From IMG/VR virus record IMGVR_UViG_3300016672_000090, positions 1 through 64,000 of that record: a stretch of DNA of 64,000 bases. The stretch is one strand, 5' to 3'. The notes below the pieces were generated by a model, which was given only the letters and a program-made list of their open reading frames with translations, was not told where the DNA came from and searched no databases. The DNA is from a virus (taxonomy: Duplodnaviria; Caudoviricetes). Shown here in pieces: positions 42,201 through 59,405 of this stretch. Made by a program: the position numbers and the translations under genes. Position 1 is the stretch's first letter. Every line of letters starts with the position of its first letter.

Positions 42201-42921
42201 ATTTCACCTGCAAACCTTTGAGGTTGTCCCACTTGTGCGCCCTTGCACTGCTGGTCAGCGCTTTGGCGAGTTTGGCGAACTGATCCGCTGTAACCTCGAC
42301 CTCGGCCTTGGCGTAGGGGTCCAAGAAAATCTGGGCGCCAGCTACCGGGATGCGGCTTCGGGTGTGGTTTTCGAGAACAATCGTTGCCGGGAACTCGCTA
42401 ATTTCAGGAAGCGCCCACACGGTCAAAGTTACGGCACAGTCAGCGGCTTTTTCGGCGCCGGTTTGCGCGGTTTCCAGGCTCTCAGTACGGGCTTGGTCGT
42501 AGGCATGGGCCTCGCCTTCAAGAAAAGCCATTTGCTCAGCCAGAAGGTTGGCAGCTTCGGTGCGCCTGGCGTCCTCAGCCAAGGCTTCTTCCTCAAGCAG
42601 GGTCATTTTCAGCGCCAGCAACCGCGCAGCTTCGGTACGCTCGGCGTCCTCAACTCGTGCTTCGCCTTCCAGAAGGGCCATTTCTCGTAGCGCTTTATCC
42701 TCTGCGCTTTCGTCTTCACTTCCAGCGCTATCGGGTGCATTACCAGCGGGCGCACCAACGCCCGGTGAGGTCGCGGATTGCTCCACGCCTCCCGGAGTTG
42801 TGGGGGCCGCTGCGGATTTAGCGGCAGCAGGCTTTTTGCCCGCTGCTGGAGTGCTTTTCGCAGCCATGACAGCCCCCTTTAGCCCAGTGCGTACACGTTT
42901 TTGATGGTGATCAGCGCGCAA
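42184..42921 (-). CDS. Virion-region protein, Ala/Glu-rich with internal repeat
   Basis: Repeats of LLEGEA/LLEEEA/FLEGEA; its C-terminal domain resembles the neighbouring ORF. Confidence 0.55.
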   Translation of the reverse strand: MRADHHQKRVRTGLKGAVMAAKSTPAAGKKPAAAKSAAAPTTPGGVEQSATSPGVGAPAGNAPDSAGSEDESAEDKALREMALLEGEARVEDAERTEAARLLALKMTLLEEEALAEDARRTEAANLLAEQMAFLEGEAHAYDQARTESLETAQTGAEKAADCAVTLTVWALPEISEFPATIVLENHTRSRIPVAGAQIFLDPYAKAEVEVTADQFAKLAKALTSSARAHKWDNLKGLQVKYDRKN

Positions 42922-44561
42922 CCCATTGCGGATTGCATGTGCGGGTTCACTTCGGTCAGCTGGCGGGAGAACAGCGCCGCGCCGGTTTTCAGATCCGAGT
43001 TCACCGCCAGCGGGATCAAGGTCGGGGATACCGCGTCAGAGAAGACAATCGGGTTACGCGCAACCTGAGGGGAACGACCGACACACAGGATTTCGATATC
43101 TACGTCGGTTTCTTGAACGACATACGGGGTGTAGATAACGTCGTACTTGTTCTTGTAGCGGCCCACACGCCAGATACCAGCCTTTGCATCCACACCCGAC
43201 GCAACAAAGTCAGTGCTATCCATGGAAAGGAACTGAGACATACCGTGAGCGCCCACGTACATGAAGCTCAAACCGAATTCCATGGTCTGGTTGGCCACTT
43301 CCTGGTCAACAGCAGCAACGAACGAGCCGAAGTCGCGCCAGCCTTGAGCACGGGTTTTCTGCAACAGCTGCTCGGCGGCGTTGAAGTCGTATTCGCGATT
43401 GGTGTTCTTGGCCAGCTTGCGAATTTTTTTCAGCGCGGAGATATAGCGCTCATTCGCCATCTGAGTGCGCGCGGCCTGGACAGCGATGGTCAGGCGATCC
43501 GCACCCAATTCAGACTGAGCGGAACTGCGCGAATCAGGGGTAGCCTGCATGATCACGCGGCTAGGCGCGCAGTACAGGGAAAAGCTCTGCGCGACGGTAC
43601 CGATGTTCGGCGCCAGTTCAGGCTTGCGCTCGAAGTCGATAAAGCCTTGTGCTTCCACGTCGACATCAGCGGCCAGGGCCGGGTTGAACGTCAGGGTACC
43701 GACGCCGGTATCCACGTTAACGCTACCGTTAATAACGTGGTTCTGAGTACCGACCTTCACTTGACCGGAAATCAACGAGGTGACTGTGCCGGAGTTATTG
43801 GCCTGCTCGAAAGCAACCGGGAAGCCGTTAACGACAATCGATGTACGGTTGCGGATCAGCGGGACAGTGCCGCCGCCAGCGATGCCAGCAGTAACCGCGA
43901 AGGTGCCACCAGTACGAGCAACGTCAACGGTAACGGGCACAACTCGTTCGGAGCGAGTGTATTCACGACCGCCAGCAGTACCGTCGATGATATCGCCAGC
44001 GTTGTATGCGCCGAATGTAGAACCCGTGATCGAGGTAATGATTGCCAGCTTCGACTCGTTAGAGCTGAGGTCAGATGGCAGATACGCGCCGAACGGAATT
44101 GCTTCGCTCAGACCACCGGTGATTGCCACAGCAATACGGTTCGGCTGGTGCGACAGGGTTGCCGATGCGTTGTTGGTACTGATGCTGTCCAGGGTAGTGC
44201 CATGCGGCAGAACGTGGGCGCTCTTACCGTCAGCAACGTTTTCAGCCTGAGAGAGGACTGCATCGATCAAGTCAGCGGACGGCGAAAAGCCATGCTTGCG
44301 TTGGAAAGTCGCGATACCGTCCAGCATCGAAGTGATAGCCAGGGCGCGGTTATCGTCACCATCGATTTTGTCCAGCAGGCGAGCAGCTCGCGCCGGCAGC
44401 AGGGTACCAGCGTTGGCCACGGCGTTTTTCACCACGTCCTGAGCCGATGCGCTCATGCTATCGAGCATATTGCCATTGCCACGCGCGGCGCTTACCAGCG
44501 TACCAACCTTGGCAGCAACCTCACCCAAACCGGAATCGGGCGCGTAAATATTCTTCGGCAT
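42879..44561 (-). CDS. Major capsid protein, P1 gp23-like
   Basis: FGAYNAGDIID, VPLIRNRTSIVVNG, PELAP match P1 gp23 (FGSYAAGDVLD, VPIRKGRTNIYVNR, PELIP); ATG 44561 with SD gaggt. Confidence 0.88.
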   Translation of the reverse strand: MPKNIYAPDSGLGEVAAKVGTLVSAARGNGNMLDSMSASAQDVVKNAVANAGTLLPARAARLLDKIDGDDNRALAITSMLDGIATFQRKHGFSPSADLIDAVLSQAENVADGKSAHVLPHGTTLDSISTNNASATLSHQPNRIAVAITGGLSEAIPFGAYLPSDLSSNESKLAIITSITGSTFGAYNAGDIIDGTAGGREYTRSERVVPVTVDVARTGGTFAVTAGIAGGGTVPLIRNRTSIVVNGFPVAFEQANNSGTVTSLISGQVKVGTQNHVINGSVNVDTGVGTLTFNPALAADVDVEAQGFIDFERKPELAPNIGTVAQSFSLYCAPSRVIMQATPDSRSSAQSELGADRLTIAVQAARTQMANERYISALKKIRKLAKNTNREYDFNAAEQLLQKTRAQGWRDFGSFVAAVDQEVANQTMEFGLSFMYVGAHGMSQFLSMDSTDFVASGVDAKAGIWRVGRYKNKYDVIYTPYVVQETDVDIEILCVGRSPQVARNPIVFSDAVSPTLIPLAVNSDLKTGAALFSRQLTEVNPHMQSAMGCALITIKNVYALG

Positions 44562-44614
44562 GTGTAACCTCATTTCTGATAATTGCGGGCTGCGCCCGAG
44601 TCGTTTCAGAAATG

Positions 44615-44655
44615 ATGGTAAGAGCGAAAAACCCCCGTTTTTGGCGGGGGTTTGC
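44615..44655 (-). promoter_or_regulatory. Late promoter motif (capsid operon)
   Basis: GCAAACC-N28-TACCAT. Confidence 0.78.
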
Positions 44656-44677
44656 ACGGTTTTCGCTGATTTTTAGG

Positions 44678-47600
44678 CTACTTCTTGATGATGATCATCC
44701 GGGCATTTGCCCCGGTTTGAGCCAAAAGGTCTTTATCCTTGAAAGTTCCGCCTTCCAGCTTCTCAATCGTGGCTTTGTGAGTGTCCAGCCACGCCCGGAA
44801 CGCAACGGCCTTCTGGTCGGTACCGAAGAAAACACCCTCCCCGGCAATCGCCACCAGACGCCCACCACTGGCGAGCATTCCGAATGCCCGCATGATGTGG
44901 CTCGCGTCTTTGCGCGCGGAAAATGGAGGATTCATCAGAATGGCCTGATACGGTTGTTCGGGTGTGAAACCTTCAAAATCGTGGTCTACGACGGTGTACC
45001 CCTTGGCCGTCAATATGTCCCTTAATTGGCTGGAAATTTCGATAACGTCCACCTCACCACCGGCAGACTTTGCGGCGTCCGCTAGATTCCCGTTGCCGGC
45101 GCTGGGCTCAAGTACTCGTGTGCCTTTGGTGATGCCTGCCAGGCTCGCCATGCGGTGCGCCACGTTCAAAGGCGTTGGGAAAAAGTCGATCCCAACCTTC
45201 TGGCCAATAATTGCCCGCTCAGCTTTTTTGACTGCGCTCTCTTCGGTCTTTGCGACCATCATGGGCAACAGCTCGCGAGCGGCTTCACGCAAGGTTGAGG
45301 CGTCTGTGATCCCCATCCGGGATAGTCGCTCCAGACGGGCTATGCTCTCCATAGGGTCTTGAAGCACATGGGAATCCCTAGTCCCCTTGAGCAAGGCGCT
45401 TGCCCGGCGGGTAATAGCAGCATCCTCTGTGTTCATCGTGAACTGTTCAGCCCTGGCCCCCATTTTGTTAAGAGCGGCCATAAGGCGCATGTTTCCGTCA
45501 GGGCTGTGCTTTCCAATGGCCTTGGCAGCATCACGAAAGCGACTGGCCCACGTCACTTGGCTGGGCATGGTGATGTTTTTGAGGTCGTTGTCATCGAACG
45601 GACGGCCTTTGCGCTTTAACTGATCGCTATAGCTCAGGCGCCTATCCGTTTCGTACTGAGCCAGGCGCAGGGCTCTTTGCAACTCTTCCAGTTGCGCCCG
45701 ACTGCTGAGCTTGGTCAGTAGTCCGCCGGCGCCGACTTCGATGGCATCGGCGATGTTATTGAGGGTCTGACCGTCTGCCTTGTTGGCGGATGCCTTGGCA
45801 ATAGCGCTCGCGGCCATACCGGCACGCCTGGCGGTGTTTGTGGTGCGATCCTGACTCATGCCAGCATCGCCACTCTCAACGGCCTTGTTCGCTACTGTGC
45901 GCAGCTTCTCGACCTGACTACCCAGCGCTTTTTGGCGGCGCTCTTCGGCCAGACGCTCAGCATTGGCTGCCTTTTCGACTTCCTGCTCAGGAGAAAGCAC
46001 CACCGGCGCCGGCGCGGCCTGAATATGCGCCGTGGCGCCGTCCAGGTGTTCCTCACGAATGAAGTAACCGCCATTCATGCGCCAGGTGTAGGCGTCAATG
46101 GCTTTAGCTTCGGCAAAAGCCAAATCAGTGCGGACGATCCCGCGCAACACCTTGCCGCGCTTGGTGGTGTACTCAATGATTTCGTGCTGTGCGGCAGGCG
46201 GTTCAGGATCTTGGTCAGCATCCGTCGGAACGATCTTTTCCCCGTTCAAGATCCAGCGGCGCCCGGCGTTGTATTCGCGGGCATGCGCTCTCACCGTCGC
46301 AGGCCCGGTTTTTCCGTAGGCGTGAACAATGGCAGCGCGCTTGCTATCGTCCATCACCATCAAACCGTCTTGCAGTACCAGGAACTCGCGACGGGAGCCG
46401 TAAACCGGTATGGCGCCAACTTCGGGTGGTTCAGCTAGGACGTTCGGACTGATGAACTGCGTCCCGGTGCCCGTGATGGCGGGCTTGGAGGCTGGCGGCT
46501 CAACTGGTACCGGCTCAGCTTCTTGGCGGGCCTTGATATAGATTCCCAGCTCCAGGCGGTGCTGGCCCATCTGGCGGGCGCCTTCGTTAGCCACAGCGGG
46601 ACCAGTGCGCCGGCCGCCACCATTCATTTCGCGGTCGCTTTGCGAACTGCGGATTTCCCCGCCCATGCCCTCATAGACCGCTTCCAATTCGGCCACGGAC
46701 TTGTCACCGTACTGACGGGCCATGCGCGCCATGATGTCGGCGTCTGACTCTGCCCCCGCTTTCACCCGCTCAATCAAATAATCGCGGTTCTGCTTGAGCG
46801 CCTGAATGGCCTGCGGGCGGTCATAGGTGCCTTTCTCCAGGCGGCGGGCGATGTCTTTGGTGGCATGGCTGAGGCCGCGATAGAAGTCCTTGGCTACAGC
46901 CAGCAACTTGGCCTGTAGCTGCTCATCATTCGCACCTTCAATCGTTGAGTCTGGTGTTTCAGCGGTAATTACCAGTGGCTCGACGTTTTTTGGCTCCGCT
47001 GGCGCCCTGGCTGCCTTCACCCGCTCAGATAGATACTCGTCCGCCCACTGGCGCACGTAGGCAACGTATTCGTCTTTGTTGGCCGATACAGGGGCTTTGG
47101 TGAGGCGCGTAAACTCGCCAGCCCGAATTCCAGCCCAACCCAAGAACCCGGCATTGCTACCGCTGGTTGGCAGTTCTTCCAGGGTGTCCAGGTAGGCTTG
47201 ATAAATTGGGTTTTCAGACGTGCCGGCGCCGATAGTCTTTTCAAATTCCTCGCGCTTTAGATGATCCTGCAAGGCGAGCACCCGCGCCAACTCTTCGGCC
47301 TGCACCTTGGCCAGCGCCTCAGCCGCCTCCTTTTCCCGCAGTGGGGCAGCAGCCTTATCGATATCGGCGGCTTCGTTGTCTGCCTTGCGTTGCGCAATGG
47401 CTGCTTGCTCTTCCTGATACGCCTCGATGTCAGCAGGCGTCGCATCCTCACCAAAAACGGCGCGGAATTTCTCGGGGCCCCATTCTTGCGCCATCAGGCT
47501 TTTCAGCTCTGGCAGATCGCGAGCAATCCCCGAGATATCGCCCTTGAACGCTACAGACACACCGTCGGGATCTGCATAGGTGTAGAGCACAGCGCCAGAC

Positions 47601-48154
47601 GATAGGATTTCTTGCGTGGTAGGCAGTACCTGAGCTGCCCGCGCCTGAGCCTTAGTGAATAGAAGCCCGGCGGGCGTCATCGTGTACTTGGCCTGATCCA
47701 GGTAGGCCGTAACATAGGCCGCCAGCGCAAGCGAGTTGCCGGTAACGAGAACCCCGCCGTTTTTCTGGGCAACTTTCCCCGTAACCATCTGGCGCAAGAG
47801 ATTGGCGGGCGATGCTTGCCGGCGGCGCTGTGGTCGGCGAATAGGTCCACCCAGCAGGCCGCGCAGCTCTAAACCTCGGGCACTGGCGCGAACCTGCTCA
47901 ATAGGGCTGAGCTTTCCGGCTTCCAGGTTGGCGCGCACAGTCAGAAGCTCGGCGCTAAAGCGCATTACCTCTAAAGCGTTATAGAGCTTTGGCGTTGTTT
48001 CTTGGATGGCATCCAGCAGCGCGGCATGCAGATCGATTGATTCGACCGTGGCACGTGCCTGCTCGATAGGATTAAGGCTGCCCGATAATAGCGGCGCATG
48101 TAGCTGTAACAGCTTGGCGGCGCTCCGGGCTTGTTCGATAGCATGGGAGGGCAT
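44678..48154 (-). CDS. Large polyvalent protein with C-terminal N6-adenine DNA methyltransferase (DarB-like)
   Basis: DFFPTP, VLEPSAG.G, NPPF, GGRLVAI MTase motifs; repeated PIEQ(A/V)RA helices at the N-terminus; no helicase motifs seen. Confidence 0.85.
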   Translation of the reverse strand: MPSHAIEQARSAAKLLQLHAPLLSGSLNPIEQARATVESIDLHAALLDAIQETTPKLYNALEVMRFSAELLTVRANLEAGKLSPIEQVRASARGLELRGLLGGPIRRPQRRRQASPANLLRQMVTGKVAQKNGGVLVTGNSLALAAYVTAYLDQAKYTMTPAGLLFTKAQARAAQVLPTTQEILSSGAVLYTYADPDGVSVAFKGDISGIARDLPELKSLMAQEWGPEKFRAVFGEDATPADIEAYQEEQAAIAQRKADNEAADIDKAAAPLREKEAAEALAKVQAEELARVLALQDHLKREEFEKTIGAGTSENPIYQAYLDTLEELPTSGSNAGFLGWAGIRAGEFTRLTKAPVSANKDEYVAYVRQWADEYLSERVKAARAPAEPKNVEPLVITAETPDSTIEGANDEQLQAKLLAVAKDFYRGLSHATKDIARRLEKGTYDRPQAIQALKQNRDYLIERVKAGAESDADIMARMARQYGDKSVAELEAVYEGMGGEIRSSQSDREMNGGGRRTGPAVANEGARQMGQHRLELGIYIKARQEAEPVPVEPPASKPAITGTGTQFISPNVLAEPPEVGAIPVYGSRREFLVLQDGLMVMDDSKRAAIVHAYGKTGPATVRAHAREYNAGRRWILNGEKIVPTDADQDPEPPAAQHEIIEYTTKRGKVLRGIVRTDLAFAEAKAIDAYTWRMNGGYFIREEHLDGATAHIQAAPAPVVLSPEQEVEKAANAERLAEERRQKALGSQVEKLRTVANKAVESGDAGMSQDRTTNTARRAGMAASAIAKASANKADGQTLNNIADAIEVGAGGLLTKLSSRAQLEELQRALRLAQYETDRRLSYSDQLKRKGRPFDDNDLKNITMPSQVTWASRFRDAAKAIGKHSPDGNMRLMAALNKMGARAEQFTMNTEDAAITRRASALLKGTRDSHVLQDPMESIARLERLSRMGITDASTLREAARELLPMMVAKTEESAVKKAERAIIGQKVGIDFFPTPLNVAHRMASLAGITKGTRVLEPSAGNGNLADAAKSAGGEVDVIEISSQLRDILTAKGYTVVDHDFEGFTPEQPYQAILMNPPFSARKDASHIMRAFGMLASGGRLVAIAGEGVFFGTDQKAVAFRAWLDTHKATIEKLEGGTFKDKDLLAQTGANARMIIIKK

Positions 48155-48188: not shown

Positions 48189-48229
48189 ATTTTGAGGCGC
48201 GGTAATTACCCTGGTCGGGGGCAGTTTGC
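48189..48229 (-). promoter_or_regulatory. Late promoter motif (MTase)
   Basis: GCAAACT-N28-CAAAAT. Confidence 0.72.
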
Positions 48230-48408
48230 GCCATAGCTGTAGACAATGGTCGTCATGCAACCCATCCAAAACTGATGTGACTAATGATCCAAATCAGACC
48301 CTCGATCACAGCCCAGCCACTAACGGCGCAGATCACGCAGATCATAATGAAGGCGCCTTGCATATCAGATATCGGGCCCATGGCTCTTATCCTCGTCAGT
48401 GTCGCGGA

Positions 48409-52323: not shown

Positions 52324-52396
52324 ATCCGCTATCGAGCGCCAACAAAAAGCCCGCACGCGGCGGGCTTCCTGTTGCTATGGGTCATTAGAGGCCAGG

Positions 52397-55300
52397 CTAG
52401 AACGCGCTAGCCGTAGCCTTAAGCGCATAGTCCCGGAATGCATCTGAGGCTTCGATAAACAGCTCGCTCAACTTGTCTTCGCCATAGGCCGCATAGATGC
52501 GCTCAAGCTCCTTAAGCACATCGCTGGCGCTGCCTAAGTCGGTAGTGCCGCCAATGATGTCGTCGAGGTAGGACTTTGCCTGTTGTACGGCTTCGTCTTC
52601 GTCCGGCTCTTCTGGTGGCGCTGATTGAGGGGGTTGGCTGAACATGTCGGCCTGATCAATGGCGAATAACCCCTCGCCATACTCCTGCTCAAGTTTTCGG
52701 TTAGCGGCGCTCACAATGTCTGTGAAGCTGGCCGGCTCATCACCAAACAGGCCAGCGGTCTGCTTGCGGATATTCTCGCTTTCCACGAACTGGGCCATGG
52801 CCTTGAATGCGGTGCTCATGCGCTTGGCGCTGCGGTTGTTGGCGCTGATGAATACCGCCATAGCTGCGATAGCCGGGTCAGTGCCGCCGAACATGTCACC
52901 CTGGCGTAGGAACTCGTCCAAGCCCATGCCAGCCTCTTTTGCCTGGCGCAGCACATTGGTAGCGCCAATGATGGCGTTTACCGCTTCTTGGTTAAGCGAC
53001 AGCTCCAGGGAGTCGGTGACCTGCTCGCCAGCTTTTTCGGCGCCGATCCGGTCCTGTTCCTTGGCGCGCATGAAGTCTGGGGCGGCGCTGTTCAATGCTG
53101 AGACGATATTTGCAATCTCAGGCTTGGCCTGATCCGCCGTCATTTCAAGCAAACGGTCATCGGAGTAGGCGCCAGCAAACAGTGCGGCCTGTAGGCGACT
53201 GATCAGGCCAGACGTTGGCTTGCCGTCAGTGGTCAAGTACTGCGCCGCCTCGGCATCGCCCAGCGATTGCAGGAAGGCAGCCACAAAGTCACGGTTTGCG
53301 GCGCTGTTGAGGTCGCCGTCGGTGAGCTTGGCCAGCATGGCGGTGTCCAGGCGCTTGGCATCACTGCGGGCCTTCTCGGTAGCAGTCATCGCCAGCTTGT
53401 CGTCTTGGTTCGACTCCACAGCGAACTCCACGCGATTCACTTCTGTTTTCCGCACCCGCACCAGCACCGGCGCCTTCATACGTTGGATCTTGGCCGGGTC
53501 GACGGCGAAGTACTCCGCGTTTTCCAGAAGCCACTCCCGGTATTCGTCGGCCTGGCCAATACGGTAGGCCTCACGGATCGCCATGGCGCGACCGTTGCCC
53601 GATTCGACCACACGGTCAGCACCAACGATAGGGGCGCCGCTGTCGGCACGCTGGGTGCGGCCAAGGCTGTCCGGGTCAAGGTTGCGTGCGGTTTTCTGCA
53701 CCCATGCCTGTGACGTGGTACGCGCTCGGTCACGCGGCTGAATTTCAGGCGGGTATTCCGGGTTTACGGTGCCGTCAGTCTCGTGGCTGATGATCAGGTT
53801 CTTCGCCTCGATCACCTTGAAACCGGTCACGACCTTGGTGCCCTTGGCAGTTTTTACGGTGTTGTCGCGGCCTTCGGCTTCAATGGTGCCAGTGTCTTCG
53901 TTGGTGTCAGGCTCTACGGCGGGTACCGCTACGGGCTCGGGGGGCATTTCAACCACAGCGGAGGCCTGATCAGCTCGCCACTTCTCAATAAACAGCAGCG
54001 CGGTACCGAGGGCTGTACCCACGGCAGACTCAATGCCATTTTCTAAAGTGCTCGACCCCATGCTTTCCTGGCCGTTAACGCCAGGCTTGAGGATGTAGGC
54101 AGTCAACATGCTCCCGCCAGCAGTTGGGCGCAGTCGAATGCCGTAACCGTCTGCGGCAATAGCTGTAAAGCCGTCCGGATCGATGTCGCTAACGAACTCG
54201 GCAGGCACCAGGCGCCGCGCTACCTCATTGAGGGTTTCGGCTTTTGGCTCCGGTACAACTTCCGGTTCGACTGCGGCACGCATATCGGCAATATTATCGG
54301 CGCCCGAGGCAATGACACGCTCGGCAATGGCAACGCCCTCGGCTTTGCTTGCAGCGGTTGCCAAGTGGGTACTGGCCCAGCTCACGCCCCATTCACCGGT
54401 GTCTACATACTTCGTCTTGGCGACAGTCACCGGCCCGGCGGGGCCTTGAAGAATTACCGGCGACTCATCTACAGCGGACGCGGCGGATGGATCGACAACG
54501 CCTGACAGGTCGACGACTTCACCCACACGCGCCTCATAGTCGTCAGTGTTGAGTAACTTCGTCATGTACTGCTTGCCGTCTTTGTCGAAGTAAACGTTTT
54601 CAGAGCCCACACTGATTACGGTGGCCATCCCTAGCGCGGCTACTTCGGCGTAGTCCTCAAGGATGCTGCTGGACACACTCACAGCGGGCACCGATTCCGG
54701 CTCTACGACTACAGGTGGTTGCACTGGCTCGACAACTGGCGTCGCCTTCTTCTGCTCAAGCTGGGCGGTCAAATCGAGGATCTGCGCGTCCAGGCTGGCC
54801 AACTGCCCGGTTTTTGCTTCTACAAGCGCCTTTTGCTCATCGAGCGCGGCAGTGCTGGCGGCTTTGTTCTCGTTCGCCTTGATGAACTTCGCGCTGTTCT
54901 TCTGAATCAGCGCCATGATGCGGCGTGCCACGATACGCGGGTTGATGTCCTGGCCACGCTCAGGCGCCACCACGGCGGTGATGTCCTTCTTGTTCTGTAC
55001 CCACTTCCAGCTGATCAGTTCGTCGGATGGCGTCAGCTTGTTGGGCGTGCTGTCTGGGTTGTGGAAGAACACGCTAACGCTCTGGCCATCGTCCATGCCA
55101 AATAACATGGCCACCTGAGTGGTGCCCTTGCTCTTGAATGGCTTGCTCACTTCGACGGTGAGGGCTTTCACGTCACTGCTTGCCGCCTGCATCACACGCA
55201 GGAGCTGGCCAGCCTTGCGTTCGAACTGCTTGTACTCGATCACCATGGCGTCGAGCATTTCCCCGCTTTCGCCCAGGTGCTCGGTGATATCGGTCATGGT

Positions 55301-55978
55301 GGCGCTATCCATCAGCAGGCCGCTAGGATCTGCTCGGCGCATTTCATACAGCACCGCGCCCACGGTTTCGCCCACCGGGAGGTTATCGGCGCCCCAGCGC
55401 GTCAGTACATCAGTCATGCTCAAAGCCTCATCTTTTGGAATATTTGGTAAGTCAGGGGATAGGGGCTTGTTTAGATCCCCGTGCCTGAGCCAGTACTTGA
55501 ACTGCTTGATGGTGCAGGCCGCGACACTGCCAAGGCCGGACCAGCCCTTTTCGTAGGAATTCATGTAGGCGGTGCAGGCCTGTACCTGATCGGTGAAGCC
55601 AAGCATTACCTTATGCTCGTCGAATACCGGCTCATCGAATGAGCGGTCGACCTTCTTCACCTGATTGATCACGTACACGCACAGGCTCTCGGGCGCCGGG
55701 CCTACAAACACGTCCACAGCGTCCCCGTCTGCACCCTTGGTCCCGTTCACATAGCCGTAGTGCGCCATACAGGTGATTGACCATGGTTTGCCGTCTTGCT
55801 TGCCACGGCGCGACTGGAACATAGGGGTTTCGATGGTGATCCGCAGGCCATGCATGCGAAAGCTGCCCTTGGCGTAGTTCCCGGCGCGGATCTGTGCGGG
55901 TGTGGGCTCTGCGCGAGAACCCATCCCGAAAGCGCCAGCATGGGCGGCGCTTTGGAGTTTGCTAAAAAGGTCGGACAT
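52397..55978 (-). CDS. darA: DarA-like polyvalent head protein: InPase + DarA_N + ddrB-like ParB + DarA_C-like
   Basis: PT.AQ..AGNY.KG...HYGY..GT.GADGD.VDVF (InPase); DDGQSVSVFFH...NKKDIT..VAP...KNSAKF (P1 DarA N); NPEYP..IQPRDR...DSGAPIV...VESGNGR (ddrB-ParB); helical C-terminus. Confidence 0.85.
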   Translation of the reverse strand: MSDLFSKLQSAAHAGAFGMGSRAEPTPAQIRAGNYAKGSFRMHGLRITIETPMFQSRRGKQDGKPWSITCMAHYGYVNGTKGADGDAVDVFVGPAPESLCVYVINQVKKVDRSFDEPVFDEHKVMLGFTDQVQACTAYMNSYEKGWSGLGSVAACTIKQFKYWLRHGDLNKPLSPDLPNIPKDEALSMTDVLTRWGADNLPVGETVGAVLYEMRRADPSGLLMDSATMTDITEHLGESGEMLDAMVIEYKQFERKAGQLLRVMQAASSDVKALTVEVSKPFKSKGTTQVAMLFGMDDGQSVSVFFHNPDSTPNKLTPSDELISWKWVQNKKDITAVVAPERGQDINPRIVARRIMALIQKNSAKFIKANENKAASTAALDEQKALVEAKTGQLASLDAQILDLTAQLEQKKATPVVEPVQPPVVVEPESVPAVSVSSSILEDYAEVAALGMATVISVGSENVYFDKDGKQYMTKLLNTDDYEARVGEVVDLSGVVDPSAASAVDESPVILQGPAGPVTVAKTKYVDTGEWGVSWASTHLATAASKAEGVAIAERVIASGADNIADMRAAVEPEVVPEPKAETLNEVARRLVPAEFVSDIDPDGFTAIAADGYGIRLRPTAGGSMLTAYILKPGVNGQESMGSSTLENGIESAVGTALGTALLFIEKWRADQASAVVEMPPEPVAVPAVEPDTNEDTGTIEAEGRDNTVKTAKGTKVVTGFKVIEAKNLIISHETDGTVNPEYPPEIQPRDRARTTSQAWVQKTARNLDPDSLGRTQRADSGAPIVGADRVVESGNGRAMAIREAYRIGQADEYREWLLENAEYFAVDPAKIQRMKAPVLVRVRKTEVNRVEFAVESNQDDKLAMTATEKARSDAKRLDTAMLAKLTDGDLNSAANRDFVAAFLQSLGDAEAAQYLTTDGKPTSGLISRLQAALFAGAYSDDRLLEMTADQAKPEIANIVSALNSAAPDFMRAKEQDRIGAEKAGEQVTDSLELSLNQEAVNAIIGATNVLRQAKEAGMGLDEFLRQGDMFGGTDPAIAAMAVFISANNRSAKRMSTAFKAMAQFVESENIRKQTAGLFGDEPASFTDIVSAANRKLEQEYGEGLFAIDQADMFSQPPQSAPPEEPDEDEAVQQAKSYLDDIIGGTTDLGSASDVLKELERIYAAYGEDKLSELFIEASDAFRDYALKATASAF

Positions 55979-56002
55979 AGAAGCGGCTCCCTGAAAGTAG
56001 CC

Positions 56003-56043
56003 ACGATACCGCCCGTTGCCCCCGCTCCCGGCTGACGGTTTGC
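56003..56043 (-). promoter_or_regulatory. Late promoter motif (darA-like)
   Basis: GCAAACC-N28-TATCGT. Confidence 0.75.
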
Positions 56044-56104
56044 GCCAAATCGCAGGCACAAAAAAGGGCGCCGCATGGGCACCCTTAGGGATGAAGCTAC
56101 CACC

Positions 56105-56415: not shown

Positions 56416-57057
56416 TCACGATGAGAGGAACGCCAGCACTTCGTTTTTTAACGCACACAGCTCATGAGCCGCAAGACCGCCTGGCCGGGTATCCAGAGGG
56501 GTACGCCCGGATGCTTGGGCTCTCGGATGGTCTTGGCGCTGCACCATACGGGTCTTAAACACCGGGAAACCGTAACCCGTAAGGGTCTTGGATATTTCCT
56601 TGCTGAGCTTCGTATTCCCGATGACGCGAGATACGACAAATGCCACTTTAACCGGCGCTTCGCCTGCGGCTACCTGATCGTCTTGATGATCTTTAATCAT
56701 GTTCACCATTTCGCTTGTTGCCCATACGTCTAAGGGCGACGGCTGTACGGGGATCAGAATCAGGTCCGCAACCTTGATCGTCTTCAAGGCTAGATCCGCA
56801 GCCTTCGCAGTGCCGTCGAGAATGACGAAATCATTTTTCAGCTTTGGTATTTCACGCTCAAGCGCTAGGCGCTCAATCACGTACACCTGCATAGGCTGTT
56901 CTTTATTCGCCTCTGCCCAGTCAAGCAAGCTGCCCTGCGGATCAGAATCAACTAGCACCACATCATGCCCGTCAAGGCTTAGCGCCCGCCCTAGACCTGT
57001 ACAGGTTGTTGTCTTGGCCGATCCGCCTTTCTGATTCATCACCGCAATAACTGTCAT
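56416..57057 (-). CDS. parA: Type Ib partition ATPase
   Basis: Deviant Walker A NQKGGSAKTT, DSDPQG, FVILDG, PVQPSPLDVWA; short, with no N-terminal HTH. Confidence 0.93.
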   Translation of the reverse strand: MTVIAVMNQKGGSAKTTTCTGLGRALSLDGHDVVLVDSDPQGSLLDWAEANKEQPMQVYVIERLALEREIPKLKNDFVILDGTAKAADLALKTIKVADLILIPVQPSPLDVWATSEMVNMIKDHQDDQVAAGEAPVKVAFVVSRVIGNTKLSKEISKTLTGYGFPVFKTRMVQRQDHPRAQASGRTPLDTRPGGLAAHELCALKNEVLAFLSS

Positions 57058-57093
57058 GCCCTGCGCTCCACCCAATTGATTATGGGCGGATTC

Positions 57094-57157
57094 TAGCGTT
57101 ATTACACTATAACGCAATAGGGCTGTTGCTCTATGGCGCCTTAGCGCTAAGGCGCCT
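57094..57157. repeat. Eight phased octamers upstream of parA (centromere/operator)
   Basis: tagcgtta ttacacta taacgcaa tagggctg ttgctcta tggcgcct tagcgcta aggcgcct. Confidence 0.75.
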
Positions 57158-57229
57158 ATGCTTGCTTGGGGCGTAAAAAAGCCCCGACTGGCGGGGCGCT
57201 TTGTATAGCAATTGCTGATCCTGGAACCC

Positions 57230-57505
57230 TTAATTAGACGCCAGCACCTGTACCGGCTCAGGACAACTAACCCGTGGGTCTTTGGGCCAAACCCCCTCAC
57301 TGATCATCTTGCAGGTCCACTCATGATCCGCTACAGCCTGATCGTAATCGCTACCACCTAACCCGGCTACCAATAGCAGATAGAGAGCTGCCATGAGCAA
57401 ACCCCCTAACCACATACCTATGCGGACCAACTTAAGCTGTTGTGCATTCATCGCTCTATTCCTTTTCGAGTCAGTCATAACCTTTGACGAAAAGAACATT
57501 ATCAT
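57230..57505 (-). CDS. Small membrane protein
   Basis: One transmembrane helix; C-terminal YC/WPD-type motif (WTCKMI..GVWP). Confidence 0.55.
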   Translation of the reverse strand: MIMFFSSKVMTDSKRNRAMNAQQLKLVRIGMWLGGLLMAALYLLLVAGLGGSDYDQAVADHEWTCKMISEGVWPKDPRVSCPEPVQVLASN

Positions 57506-57564: not shown

Positions 57565-58047
57565 ATGTCAGAAGCACCGGCTGGAATGAAAATAATGGCA
57601 TCCATAGGCGGGTTTGGCCCAGCAGGATCTATGCCTGTGACGCTCATGGCGTTCAAATCAAACGCACTCGGCACCATGACGGTTTTGAATCAAATTACGT
57701 ATAGGGAGTTTCCAGACGAAGGTTTTGCGTTCGTAACCAACCTTCGGCTGAAAAACTACGATTGCCTGTTCAAAGAGGAACATTTGGCCGCTGCGATCAC
57801 GGCGTACAAGGAAGCAGAAGGCATGGGCACCATTTTGCTGGCGGATGATGTCGCCAAGTGGCGCCCACGGATCGAGTCGGACGGCGTGGATACACAGGGG
57901 CAGAAGTATCGACTGCACGGCGATATCGGTAATGCTGAGGTGGCAGTGCTGGCGCTGGCGCACTTCATGTCACGCCAGCGCGGTATCGAGTCACTGACAC
58001 AGATGAGTGACGATATCGCCCGCCTGTATCAAATCACCTCGATCTAG
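57565..58047 (+). CDS. Hypothetical protein, antiparallel to neighbours
   Basis: SD gagga; 160 aa; convergent with the hdf-like gene. Confidence 0.65.
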   Translation: MSEAPAGMKIMASIGGFGPAGSMPVTLMAFKSNALGTMTVLNQITYREFPDEGFAFVTNLRLKNYDCLFKEEHLAAAITAYKEAEGMGTILLADDVAKWRPRIESDGVDTQGQKYRLHGDIGNAEVAVLALAHFMSRQRGIESLTQMSDDIARLYQITSI

Positions 58048-59405
58048 TCACCAGCGGCGAATGGCTCGCCATAGGCATCAAAACCAGCGTCCTCCAGGGC
58101 GCTACGGCCCTTGTCGGTCAGCATGTAAAGCCCCTCAGCTGTATTGACCATCCCCAGAGCCAGCAATTGCGCCAGCGCATCCTGGTCCTTGATATCTGTC
58201 ACGTCTGCCGCTGAAACAATGGCGATGTTCACCAGCTCAGATAGGCCAGAATCACCGAAGTCAGGGCTCACGCTATCGAGCATGGCAATAGCGGTGGTAA
58301 AGGATTTGGCCAGGCTGCGCTCAAGTGCTGCCTGATCCAAATTACCTTCGGCCTCATTGATCGGGGCATTCGTCTCTACAACGCTCAGCGCTTGTCTGAG
58401 CTGCTCGATAGCGCCAGCGGTGGCCAAGCTATCCATCATCGTCGGATCAGCCAGGACAATCTCACGCGCAGCCACATAGGCGTCGGACATGATCAGCTCT
58501 GCGCCTTGCAGTTGCTCGACTGAATCCAGCAACGCGGCAGCAGCTAAGGTTTCGGCGCCTGGCGCGTTAGGAACAGCGCCAGCAATAAGAGCCCAAGCTG
58601 GGGGCAGTTCGCCATGCTCGTCGGTCGGTACAAGCTCAAACTGGTCGCGGTTGTAAAACAATCCATCTGCCCACTTCTTAGGGAAGCCATTCGGCTGCTT
58701 ACCACCTATGCTGTCCAGCAGCGCAGCAGCGAGTGTCTGGCCTTCTGCGGTAAGCCAGTTTGCCCCATCATCGCGAGCCACAAGATTTGCTTTTAGCAGT
58801 TCGTCACGGCCCTGCTTGCTGATCAAGTCACCGTCCTCGACTGCACCAGCCTGCAACTGCACCAACACTTCTTTTGCGGCATCGTTCAGCTCAGCGGCGG
58901 GCGGCAAACTATCGACCATGATGCCAAGCTGCTGCTGTAAGTCCGCGACTGTAGCCTGGTGCTCAGCAATCTGAGCATCGAGCTGTGCAGCACGCTCGGC
59001 ATAGACCGTTATCTGTTTTGGCGCCGGCGTGCTCATGCCCTTGGGTAAAGCAATGGCCTTCCGTGCCTGCGCTTTCTGGAATGCCCCCTGCGTTTTTTCC
59101 AGCAGCGCGGCAATTTCCGCCACAGCCTTGTCAGAGTCGGTCTGGTTCTTGAGTGGTTGCACAGAGCCGTTAAGCAGCACCTGAAAGATATCGCCGGTCG
59201 TATTCACGCGCAGCACCACCAGTTGGCCACTGGCTACGGTCAAAGAAGCCTCGCGGTAAGTAATGCCAGAAGTCCGGCGCGCAGTGGCATTGAACTCAGA
59301 TGAAACCACGGGCTGACCCGCACGAATCATGAGTGTACTGACCTTCTTAAGCGCCTTGGCAGCCGACTGGGCATTGGTGAAATCGAGCTTATTCGTTGCT
59401 GGCAT
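58044..59405 (-). CDS. Hdf-like (DarA_N homolog) head protein with long acidic extension
   Basis: SGQLVVLRVNTTGDIFQVLLNGSVQP vs P1 Hdf DGQILAIQVNDTGDISSVKLNGKAIP; five (L/M/V)DS motifs. Confidence 0.8.
   Translation of the reverse strand: MPATNKLDFTNAQSAAKALKKVSTLMIRAGQPVVSSEFNATARRTSGITYREASLTVASGQLVVLRVNTTGDIFQVLLNGSVQPLKNQTDSDKAVAEIAALLEKTQGAFQKAQARKAIALPKGMSTPAPKQITVYAERAAQLDAQIAEHQATVADLQQQLGIMVDSLPPAAELNDAAKEVLVQLQAGAVEDGDLISKQGRDELLKANLVARDDGANWLTAEGQTLAAALLDSIGGKQPNGFPKKWADGLFYNRDQFELVPTDEHGELPPAWALIAGAVPNAPGAETLAAAALLDSVEQLQGAELIMSDAYVAAREIVLADPTMMDSLATAGAIEQLRQALSVVETNAPINEAEGNLDQAALERSLAKSFTTAIAMLDSVSPDFGDSGLSELVNIAIVSAADVTDIKDQDALAQLLALGMVNTAEGLYMLTDKGRSALEDAGFDAYGEPFAAGD

Follow-up and report, generated by a model that had tools for sequence, protein, structure and literature searches.

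A Dar-type polyvalent protein joining InPase, DarA_N and DdrB-like ParB domains in a distant P1-like phage-plasmid of Pseudomonas, with a predicted cleavage site between its first two domains

Phage P1 carries hdf, darA, ddrA and ddrB, in that order, as separate genes. In the viral DNA analysed here, the N-terminal part of a DarA-like protein and the N-terminal half of a DdrB-like protein lie in one chain behind a pyrophosphatase-like domain, and the locus raises the question of what this fused protein is, whether it travels in the phage head, and whether it does so in one piece. The stretch analysed, which we call the window, is positions 1 to 64,000 of the IMG/VR virus record IMGVR_UViG_3300016672_000090, the first 64 kb of an 82.7-kb record judged 96% complete. 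The element is a distant P1-like phage-plasmid of Pseudomonas. We consider it likely that the gene in question encodes a capsid-internal Dar-type polyvalent protein of this phage-plasmid that is packaged, cut and injected with the DNA.

52397..55978, minus strand: coding sequence of the 1193-residue polyvalent Dar-type protein (open reading frame list and translation)

An earlier reading of the letters without database searches, referred to below as the sequence-only reading, had placed the gene at these coordinates and in this frame, and both are correct. The open frame at the locus has 1220 codons (52397-56059, minus strand), and the true start is the ATG at 55978, which is preceded by GGGAG, a Shine-Dalgarno ribosome-binding site. 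The resulting N-terminus, MSDLF..., is kept in homologues, and the databases hold a letter-for-letter identical protein of 1193 residues. The conserved parts of the chain are as follows.

55487..55897, minus strand: InPase PF18823, family I pyrophosphatase-like oligonucleotide/oligosaccharide-binding (OB) fold, residues 28-164 (Pfam E 5.9e-44)
54893..55258, minus strand: DarA_N PF18788, residues 241-362 (Pfam E 1.5e-36)
54743..54940, minus strand: long alpha-helix of 66 residues, residues 347-412 (AlphaFold model)
53447..53845, minus strand: DdrB-like ParB/Srx domain, ddrB-ParB PF18763, residues 712-844 (Pfam E 1.8e-33)
52667..53446, minus strand: helical domain in common with the N-terminal half of P1 DdrB, residues 845-1104 (BLASTP, model)
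52403..52600, minus strand: C-terminal three-helix tail, residues 1127-1192 (family-specific; not Pfam DarA_C)

The full-length AlphaFold model, with a mean predicted local distance difference test score (pLDDT) of 77, gives the same order: an OB-type beta domain, DarA_N, the 66-residue helix, the ParB domain, the helical domain and the three-helix tail. Residue conservation was read from an alignment of 70 family members, conserved meaning invariant or at least 90%. The N-terminal InPase-like domain with a DxDxxD motif, foreseen by the sequence-only reading, scores 149.6 bits against a curated cut-off of 26.8. Its conserved residues are D84, D86, D89, D120, K123, Y74, E50 and R57; ADGDAVD supplies D84, D86 and D89, each invariant or nearly so, a D-x-x-K motif supplies D120 and K123, and the four metal-binding acidic residues of the family I active site (D84, D86, D89 and D120) are all kept. 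The family profile aligns the domain with the Helicobacter pylori pyrophosphatase 1ygz over YGxxxxTxGxDGDxVD and DEK (DGDPVD in 1ygz), and Foldseek matches the region to pyrophosphatases with a probability of up to 0.98 and a template-modelling (TM) score of 0.45. The DarA_N block, also foreseen, reaches 125.4 bits against a cut-off of 27, and a search for the family in the phage's own sequence record scores 130 bits. The conserved Asp and N-x-basic motif of DarA_N are present, with D297 and N329 invariant and the motif reading N329-K330-K331. The family profile matches P1 DarA (PDB 9ukm) at 6.7e-30, and Foldseek finds P1 DarA as 9vz0_I (E 2.4e-6) and 9ukm_I, both about 1e-6. The predicted coiled coil corresponds to the 66-residue helix. 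The ddrB-ParB domain (115.7 bits against a cut-off of 27.6) does carry the expected VESGNGR, in which V790, E792 and S793-G794-N795-G796-R797 are invariant and V791 is nearly so. Its QPRDR motif is conserved, its active-site arginine and tyrosines (R797, Y805 and Y813) are invariant, and Foldseek matches the domain to ParB-N/Noc structures with a TM score of 0.40.

Direct comparison with P1 bears out the proposal that this is a Dar-type head protein joining modules that P1 encodes separately. By BLASTP, residues 276-410 are 32% identical to residues 119-255 of P1 DarA (639 residues; PDB 9ukm and 9vz0); the two proteins share DarA_N, the long helix after it and a similar candidate cleavage site before it (LLE/A in P1, MLD/A here, the slash marking the cut). 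P1 DarA has a leader of 69 residues, whereas the fused protein has one of 243 residues with an enzyme domain in it. Residues 703-1104 are 43% identical to residues 27-435 of P1 DdrB (995 residues) over 409 residues. In P1, DdrB is a separate gene after ddrA; here its module is covalently joined to DarA_N. The DdrB of phage D6 (454 residues) gives a similar match and is short, without the peptidase half, as here.

The C-terminal end fared differently. The sequence-only reading took it for a DarA_C-like helical end, and Pfam DarA_C PF18789 gives no match at E<=10 to the whole protein or to fragments 410-705, 845-1193 and 1100-1193. As a control, the same search recovers PF18789 in P1 DarA at residues 411-472 (5.7e-17), which is not the end of P1 DarA. 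Alignment of the family tails with four DarA proteins by hhalign gives a probability of 0.9% (E 0.063), comparison with P1 DarA gives E 5 by BLAST and 2.5 bits by HMMER, and the resemblance to P1 DarA 565-582 spans 18 columns. With nothing significant from the fragment searches or from hhalign, we rejected this identification; profile searches recover InPase, DarA_N and ddrB-ParB and do not recover DarA_C.

Is this remodelling peculiar to one phage, as the sequence-only reading had it? A search of 5.8 billion proteins argues otherwise: at least 119 of the 120 clusters listed carry InPase, DarA_N and ddrB-ParB, and cultured Pseudomonas plasmids share the architecture. The three-domain homologues are mostly on Pseudomonas plasmids of ~80-95 kb; close homologues lie on plasmids of 81-95 kb typed non-mobilizable, such as pKF715C of P. 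putida KF715. Some homologues are labelled 'defense against restriction DarA-related protein' in NCBI or UniRef. Two of them (P0120 and P0121, from Vreelandella and a relative) have the permuted order DarA_N - ParB - InPase, with InPase C-terminal. The same survey bears on whether neighbouring darA-like and ddrB-like genes were joined in error, through a mistake of assembly or a frameshift, a suspicion that draws on P1, D6, JK004 and ABMM1, all of which have the parts as separate adjacent genes. A single open reading frame in 119 independent clusters from NCBI, JGI, ENA and Logan, closed plasmids among them, speaks against it, as do the well-folded domains that fill the junction in the model, and we give an artefact next to no credence.

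The fused protein belongs to a class that has already been described. Iyer, Burroughs, Anand, de Souza and Aravind defined InPase, DarA-N and DdrB-ParB in 2017 and listed them among the domains exclusive to phage-type polyvalent proteins (PMC5512222). With the polyvalent proteins of that paper it shares several effector domains in one chain, a phage origin and a setting among virion genes; it differs in that the MPTase autoprotease domain is not found in its 1193 residues, and the three domains are not mentioned in exactly this order in the text of that paper. The class is recognised by at least two effector domains in one phage polypeptide with a packaging or late context. Here there are three named and three unnamed domains, and the surrounding virus contig carries genes for a sheath, a capsid protein, an Hdf-like protein and a protease. 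Given the many clusters and the domain definitions of 2017, the fusion is not unusual, and the protein is a real but common member of the class. It carries little weight as a discovery: the 2017 study had already set out the class, its phage-only distribution and its suggested roles, and many Pseudomonas phage-plasmids have the architecture.

Other phages hold parts of the chain in other combinations. The 'internal head protein' of Xanthomonas phage Rb1 (1221 residues) shares the InPase-linker-DarA_N-helix stretch at 46% identity over residues 5-428, and no ParB module is seen in the same chain; our literature search found no paper on this phage. Acinetobacter phage ABMM1 shares the DdrB-like module in gp29 (48% identity) and the DarA_N module in gp28 (33% identity), as two adjacent genes and with no match to the InPase region. 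The portal protein of a Pbunavirus (Pa193 gp19, PDB 9b41) has the same InPase at its C-terminus, inside the head (residues 636-762, 3e-43), fused to a portal and not to a Dar protein. The 9b41 map has no density for residues 529-765, and its paper mentions no pyrophosphatase-like domain; no structure of this type of InPase therefore exists. A tblastn search with the fused protein matches 294 Pseudomonas phage records.

Between the conserved blocks lies a stretch that the sequence-only reading had not picked out. Comparison with 119 homologues shows that residues 1-410 and 690-1193 flank a replaceable, hypervariable middle at residues ~420-690, whose length runs from 8 to 713 residues across relatives and of which 67 of 116 homologues share less than 10% with this protein. 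It holds three domains.

54482..54667, minus strand: cassette A, small beta-rich domain, residues 438-499 (model, pLDDT above 90)
54269..54457, minus strand: cassette B, small beta-plus-alpha domain, residues 508-570 (model)
53957..54232, minus strand: cassette C, alpha plus five-stranded sheet plus long helix, residues 583-674 (model)

All three are confidently folded in the model, with Pro/Glu/Val linkers between them. Cassette A occurs in 40 of the 119 homologues, in varying order, and relatives carry the cassettes singly, jointly and in either order. In a library of 1.84 billion representatives, only 30 proteins match the cassettes: some are stand-alone, with 68-216 residues, and the others are larger, at about 380-4300 residues; the stand-alone relatives of cassette A have 85-216 residues. 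Cassette B also lies N-terminal to the toxin-like domain ART-PolyVal in one protein (P0143), and apart from that neighbouring domain Pfam and PHROGs return nothing on the cassettes or their stand-alone relatives. The middle domains match no named Pfam LPD family, Foldseek against the PDB gives no match at E<=0.001 for any of the three, BFVD returns only uncharacterised phage proteins of ~90 residues (E 0.003-0.04), and the ESM Atlas gives no usable match. A wide VIA search with cassette C reached a best Z of 7.7, within the common range and not diagnostic; its matches (Z<=7.7) include actin-capping protein, ribosome hibernation factors, type III chaperones, PsiB and T7 Gp1.2. Separately, a stand-alone relative of cassette B with 78 residues (L009, 6001-6237) is the first gene of an early operon on a temperate phage contig; the operon adjoins a CI-like Peptidase_S24 repressor gene and continues with YqaJ, ERF and NinB genes.

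The middle might tentatively be read as an exchangeable cargo slot for small inhibitor domains, each folding on its own and entering the cell preformed along with the DNA, a possibility to which we attach limited belief. The stand-alone copies among early genes and the shuffled cassettes support such a slot for small effectors, short of showing it. If the idea is right, the slot domains form a pool from which new anti-defence proteins could be listed simply by aligning the slot among family members. In practice, the middle gives a short set of small domains that can be screened in Pseudomonas for activity against defences, and cultured hosts are available, among them P. putida KF715 with its plasmid pKF715C.

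What would place the protein in the head is its kinship with P1 head proteins and the presence of a putative partner.

58044..59405, minus strand: Hdf-like partner gene, 453 residues from M21, with DarA_N, a helix and a variable C-terminal extension (PHROG, Pfam, BLASTP)

In P1, DarA, Hdf and DdrB have been found in virions by mass spectrometry (PMC9024508). The P1 capsid is lined on its inner wall by 55 DarA-Hdf pairs, which are ejected together with the DNA; DarA_N binds a hexon, the helices of DarA and Hdf pair in parallel as a bundle, and packaging of the other Dar proteins, DdrB included, fails when DarA or Hdf is missing (PMC12810830). Because the P1 proteins are virion proteins ejected with the DNA (PMC12810830, PMC9024508), packaging and injection of the fused protein are a reasonable expectation. 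The Hdf-like gene matches the PHROG Hdf-like family at 2.9e-34 and Pfam DarA_N at 1.8e-12, and its product matches P1 Hdf by BLASTP at 3e-11 over the entire length of P1 Hdf. Contigs with homologues of the Hdf-like protein agree in length with contigs that carry homologues of the fused protein, and in two of these agreements the named strain is the same. Both it and the fused protein keep DarA_N followed by a helix, and by homology the DarA_N-helix module would be a capsid anchor. The Hdf-like protein is also built like the fused protein in that DarA_N and the helix are constant in about its first 170 residues; among its homologues (277-545 residues) the C-terminal part varies in length and sequence.

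Another reading is that the protein mainly serves the phage's own assembly and early gene expression and not counter-defence, with DarA_N and the helix setting head size and holding DNA, and InPase clearing pyrophosphate and so speeding the first rounds of transcription or replication. In P1, DarA and Hdf do fix head size and stabilise the capsid (PMC12810830, PMC9024508), Iyer et al. offer pyrophosphate clearance as an alternative role for InPase (PMC5512222), and the Pbunavirus portal carries the same InPase. However, a hypervariable middle and the shuffling of small domains are typical of conflict-driven selection and not of structural genes, and type I systems restrict P1 dar mutants (PMC12810830). 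We regard a protein devoted mainly to assembly as unlikely.

Does the packaged protein remain one chain, as the sequence-only reading supposed? A second feature that it had not noted suggests that it does not.

55247..55258, minus strand: M-L-D/A, residues 241-244, predicted prohead-protease cut between InPase and DarA_N (P1 DarA alignment, conservation)
73046-73465 of the record: Pro-like head-processing protease, P1/D6 homologue (direct search with D6 Pro)

In P1 the prohead protease removes about 69 residues from the start of DarA, whose cryo-electron microscopy model begins at residue 70 (PMC12810830). The EMLD243/A244 of the fused protein aligns with DLLE68/A69 of P1 DarA. D243 and A244 are invariant in the alignment and the MLD/A motif is kept in 53 of the 70 sequences. 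A second candidate site, LMD/S, lies at residues 222-225, and both sit in a low-confidence linker of the AlphaFold model between InPase and DarA_N. The sequenced Pro site in P1 gp23 reads AMLE/SVAAEM (P1 gp23 sequence, read with PMC9024508). Pfam Peptidase_S78 and S77 prohead protease profiles have no match in the record, but the search with D6 Pro did find the protease listed above. The position of the conserved MLD/A, level with the processed N-terminus of P1 DarA in the alignment and between InPase and DarA_N, suggests that maturation probably separates the two domains, with the chain cut inside the head at 243/244.

An intact 130-kDa chain, packaged and injected whole with both enzyme folds tethered to the incoming DNA, would account for the domains always being in one open reading frame, for the lack of an MPTase autoprotease domain and for the linkers around cassettes A-C, in which no Pro-type motif is found; the virion RNA polymerase of N4 and some other polyvalent proteins are delivered unprocessed (PMC5512222). 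Set against this are MLD/A and LMD/S, which sit where P1 DarA loses its N-terminal residues (PMC12810830), the Pro-like protease encoded in the record, and the two homologues with InPase at the C-terminus, whose order indicates that its place relative to DarA_N is not essential. Delivery of the intact chain is in our view doubtful. The claim that one fused protein is injected is reasonable by homology as regards packaging and injection, and its weak part is the single chain.

The flanks of the gene show how it is set apart from its neighbours.

56064..56086, minus strand: terminator-like hairpin with T-run, end of the upstream unit of parA and an 82-residue open reading frame (read from sequence)
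About 52344..52367, minus strand: hairpin AAGCCCGC-CGCGT-GCGGGCTT with T-run, terminator past the stop codon (read from sequence)
56416-57300: parA, directly upstream of the fused gene together with the 82-residue open reading frame

No sigma-70 consensus promoter is found in the 85 bases between the upstream hairpin and the ATG. With terminators on both sides and no sigma-70 promoter before it, the gene is a single-gene transcription unit, and it probably depends on an activator. As a separate observation, the 9-mer GGCGCAAAC occurs twice in the window on the minus strand (48224-48232 and 56038-56046), each copy 59-69 bases ahead of a start codon, one of the fused-protein gene and the other of a 1158-residue methyltransferase gene described below. 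We tried it as a late-promoter box and did not use it: two copies are compatible with chance (39 of 100 shuffles), and there is no consistent -10 spacing.

The neighbourhood also prompts the thought that the ParB-like domain is a plasmid partition protein partnering the upstream ParA, the gene following directly after parA and the 82-residue open reading frame. Yet the terminator parts the gene from that pair, the domain is of the DdrB-type ParB family and matches a head protein, P1 DdrB, at the identity given above, and Pfam finds no helix-turn-helix or centromere-binding domain in the 1193 residues. Moreover, the ParA of pKF715C has its own 'stability/partitioning determinant' partner and sits downstream of the homologue. 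We hold a partition role to be very improbable.

Together with the P1 precedent, these observations are consistent with a model in which synthesis of the protein probably takes place late, from a transcription unit that holds no other gene, and DarA_N and the long helix would attach to the inside of the capsid alongside the Hdf-like protein, in the manner of DarA and Hdf in P1. This anchor would carry InPase, the three small cargo domains, and the ParB/Srx and helical domains into the prohead, so that the dependence of DdrB packaging on DarA and Hdf would here be hard-wired by fusion, a natural case in which the P1 rule for head entry is replaced by a covalent link. During head maturation a Pro-type prohead protease would most likely cut at MLD/A, freeing an InPase fragment of ~26 kDa from a DarA_N-to-ParB body of ~100 kDa. 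If that cut is made, the head holds these two pieces and not one chain; the predicted cut is testable and would set a pyrophosphatase-like enzyme free within the capsid. All pieces would be ejected along with the DNA and take effect during the opening minutes of infection. Protection of the incoming DNA from restriction should fall to the Dar-type part. InPase, with its catalytic aspartates intact, and ParB/Srx, with its arginine intact, would probably act on a nucleotide or a phosphoanhydride, by hydrolysis or by binding. Iyer et al. propose for InPase an attack on infection-induced nucleotides or the clearance of pyrophosphate (PMC5512222), and the nucleotide target put forward in the sequence-only reading repeats that proposal. 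Action against CBASS- or Thoeris-type defences is speculation.

Several points weigh against this model. Reportedly, Piya et al. found in 2017 that loss of P1 ddrB lowers sensitivity to EcoB and EcoK restriction; what this module does in P1 would therefore not be purely protective. The penton-binding domain of P1 DarA, Pfam DarA_C and the C-terminal half of DarA are not detected in the fused protein, which also lacks the metallopeptidase half found at the C-terminus of P1 DdrB, and the phage's own sequence record has no match to DdrA; with these parts missing, the P1 pathway is not copied one to one. The cleavage motif occurs twice in the protein against 0.9 expected, showing no enrichment over composition; at this chance level the argument for the cut is one of position and homology. 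The exact cut in P1 DarA was never sequenced, Edman degradation having given no clear signal (PMC9024508). Late expression is suggested by a single feature, the lack of a sigma-70 promoter. Our search found no virion proteomics, expression data or enzyme assay for this phage or family.

Besides the fused gene, the record has genes for a tail sheath and for a protein like PmgG, and it carries a ParA/Rep plasmid module consisting of ParA and a replication initiator. The P1 Dar set (Hdf, DarA, DdrA, DdrB, DarB and Ulx) is not present in full as separate genes, in a comparison that covered the first five. The major capsid protein of the record was located by homology search.

42879-44657, minus strand: major capsid protein

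It is nearest to the capsid protein of Xanthomonas phage Rb1 (37%) and distantly related to P1 gp23. The capsid protein has TTLD/S at residues 154-158, within three residues of the AMLE/S cut of P1 gp23 by pairwise-alignment offset. Next to it lies the gene of a 1158-residue protein (44678-48154, minus strand), to which PHROGs assign a C-terminal DNA methyltransferase but Pfam nothing at E<=0.01. Between residues 279-407 of this protein and residues 456-606 of ABMM1 gp28, which is DarA-like, the identity is 32% (5e-12). Judging by this match, part of the C-terminal half of DarA seems to sit in the 1158-residue methyltransferase protein and not in the DarA_N protein, and a DarB-like role may fall to this protein.

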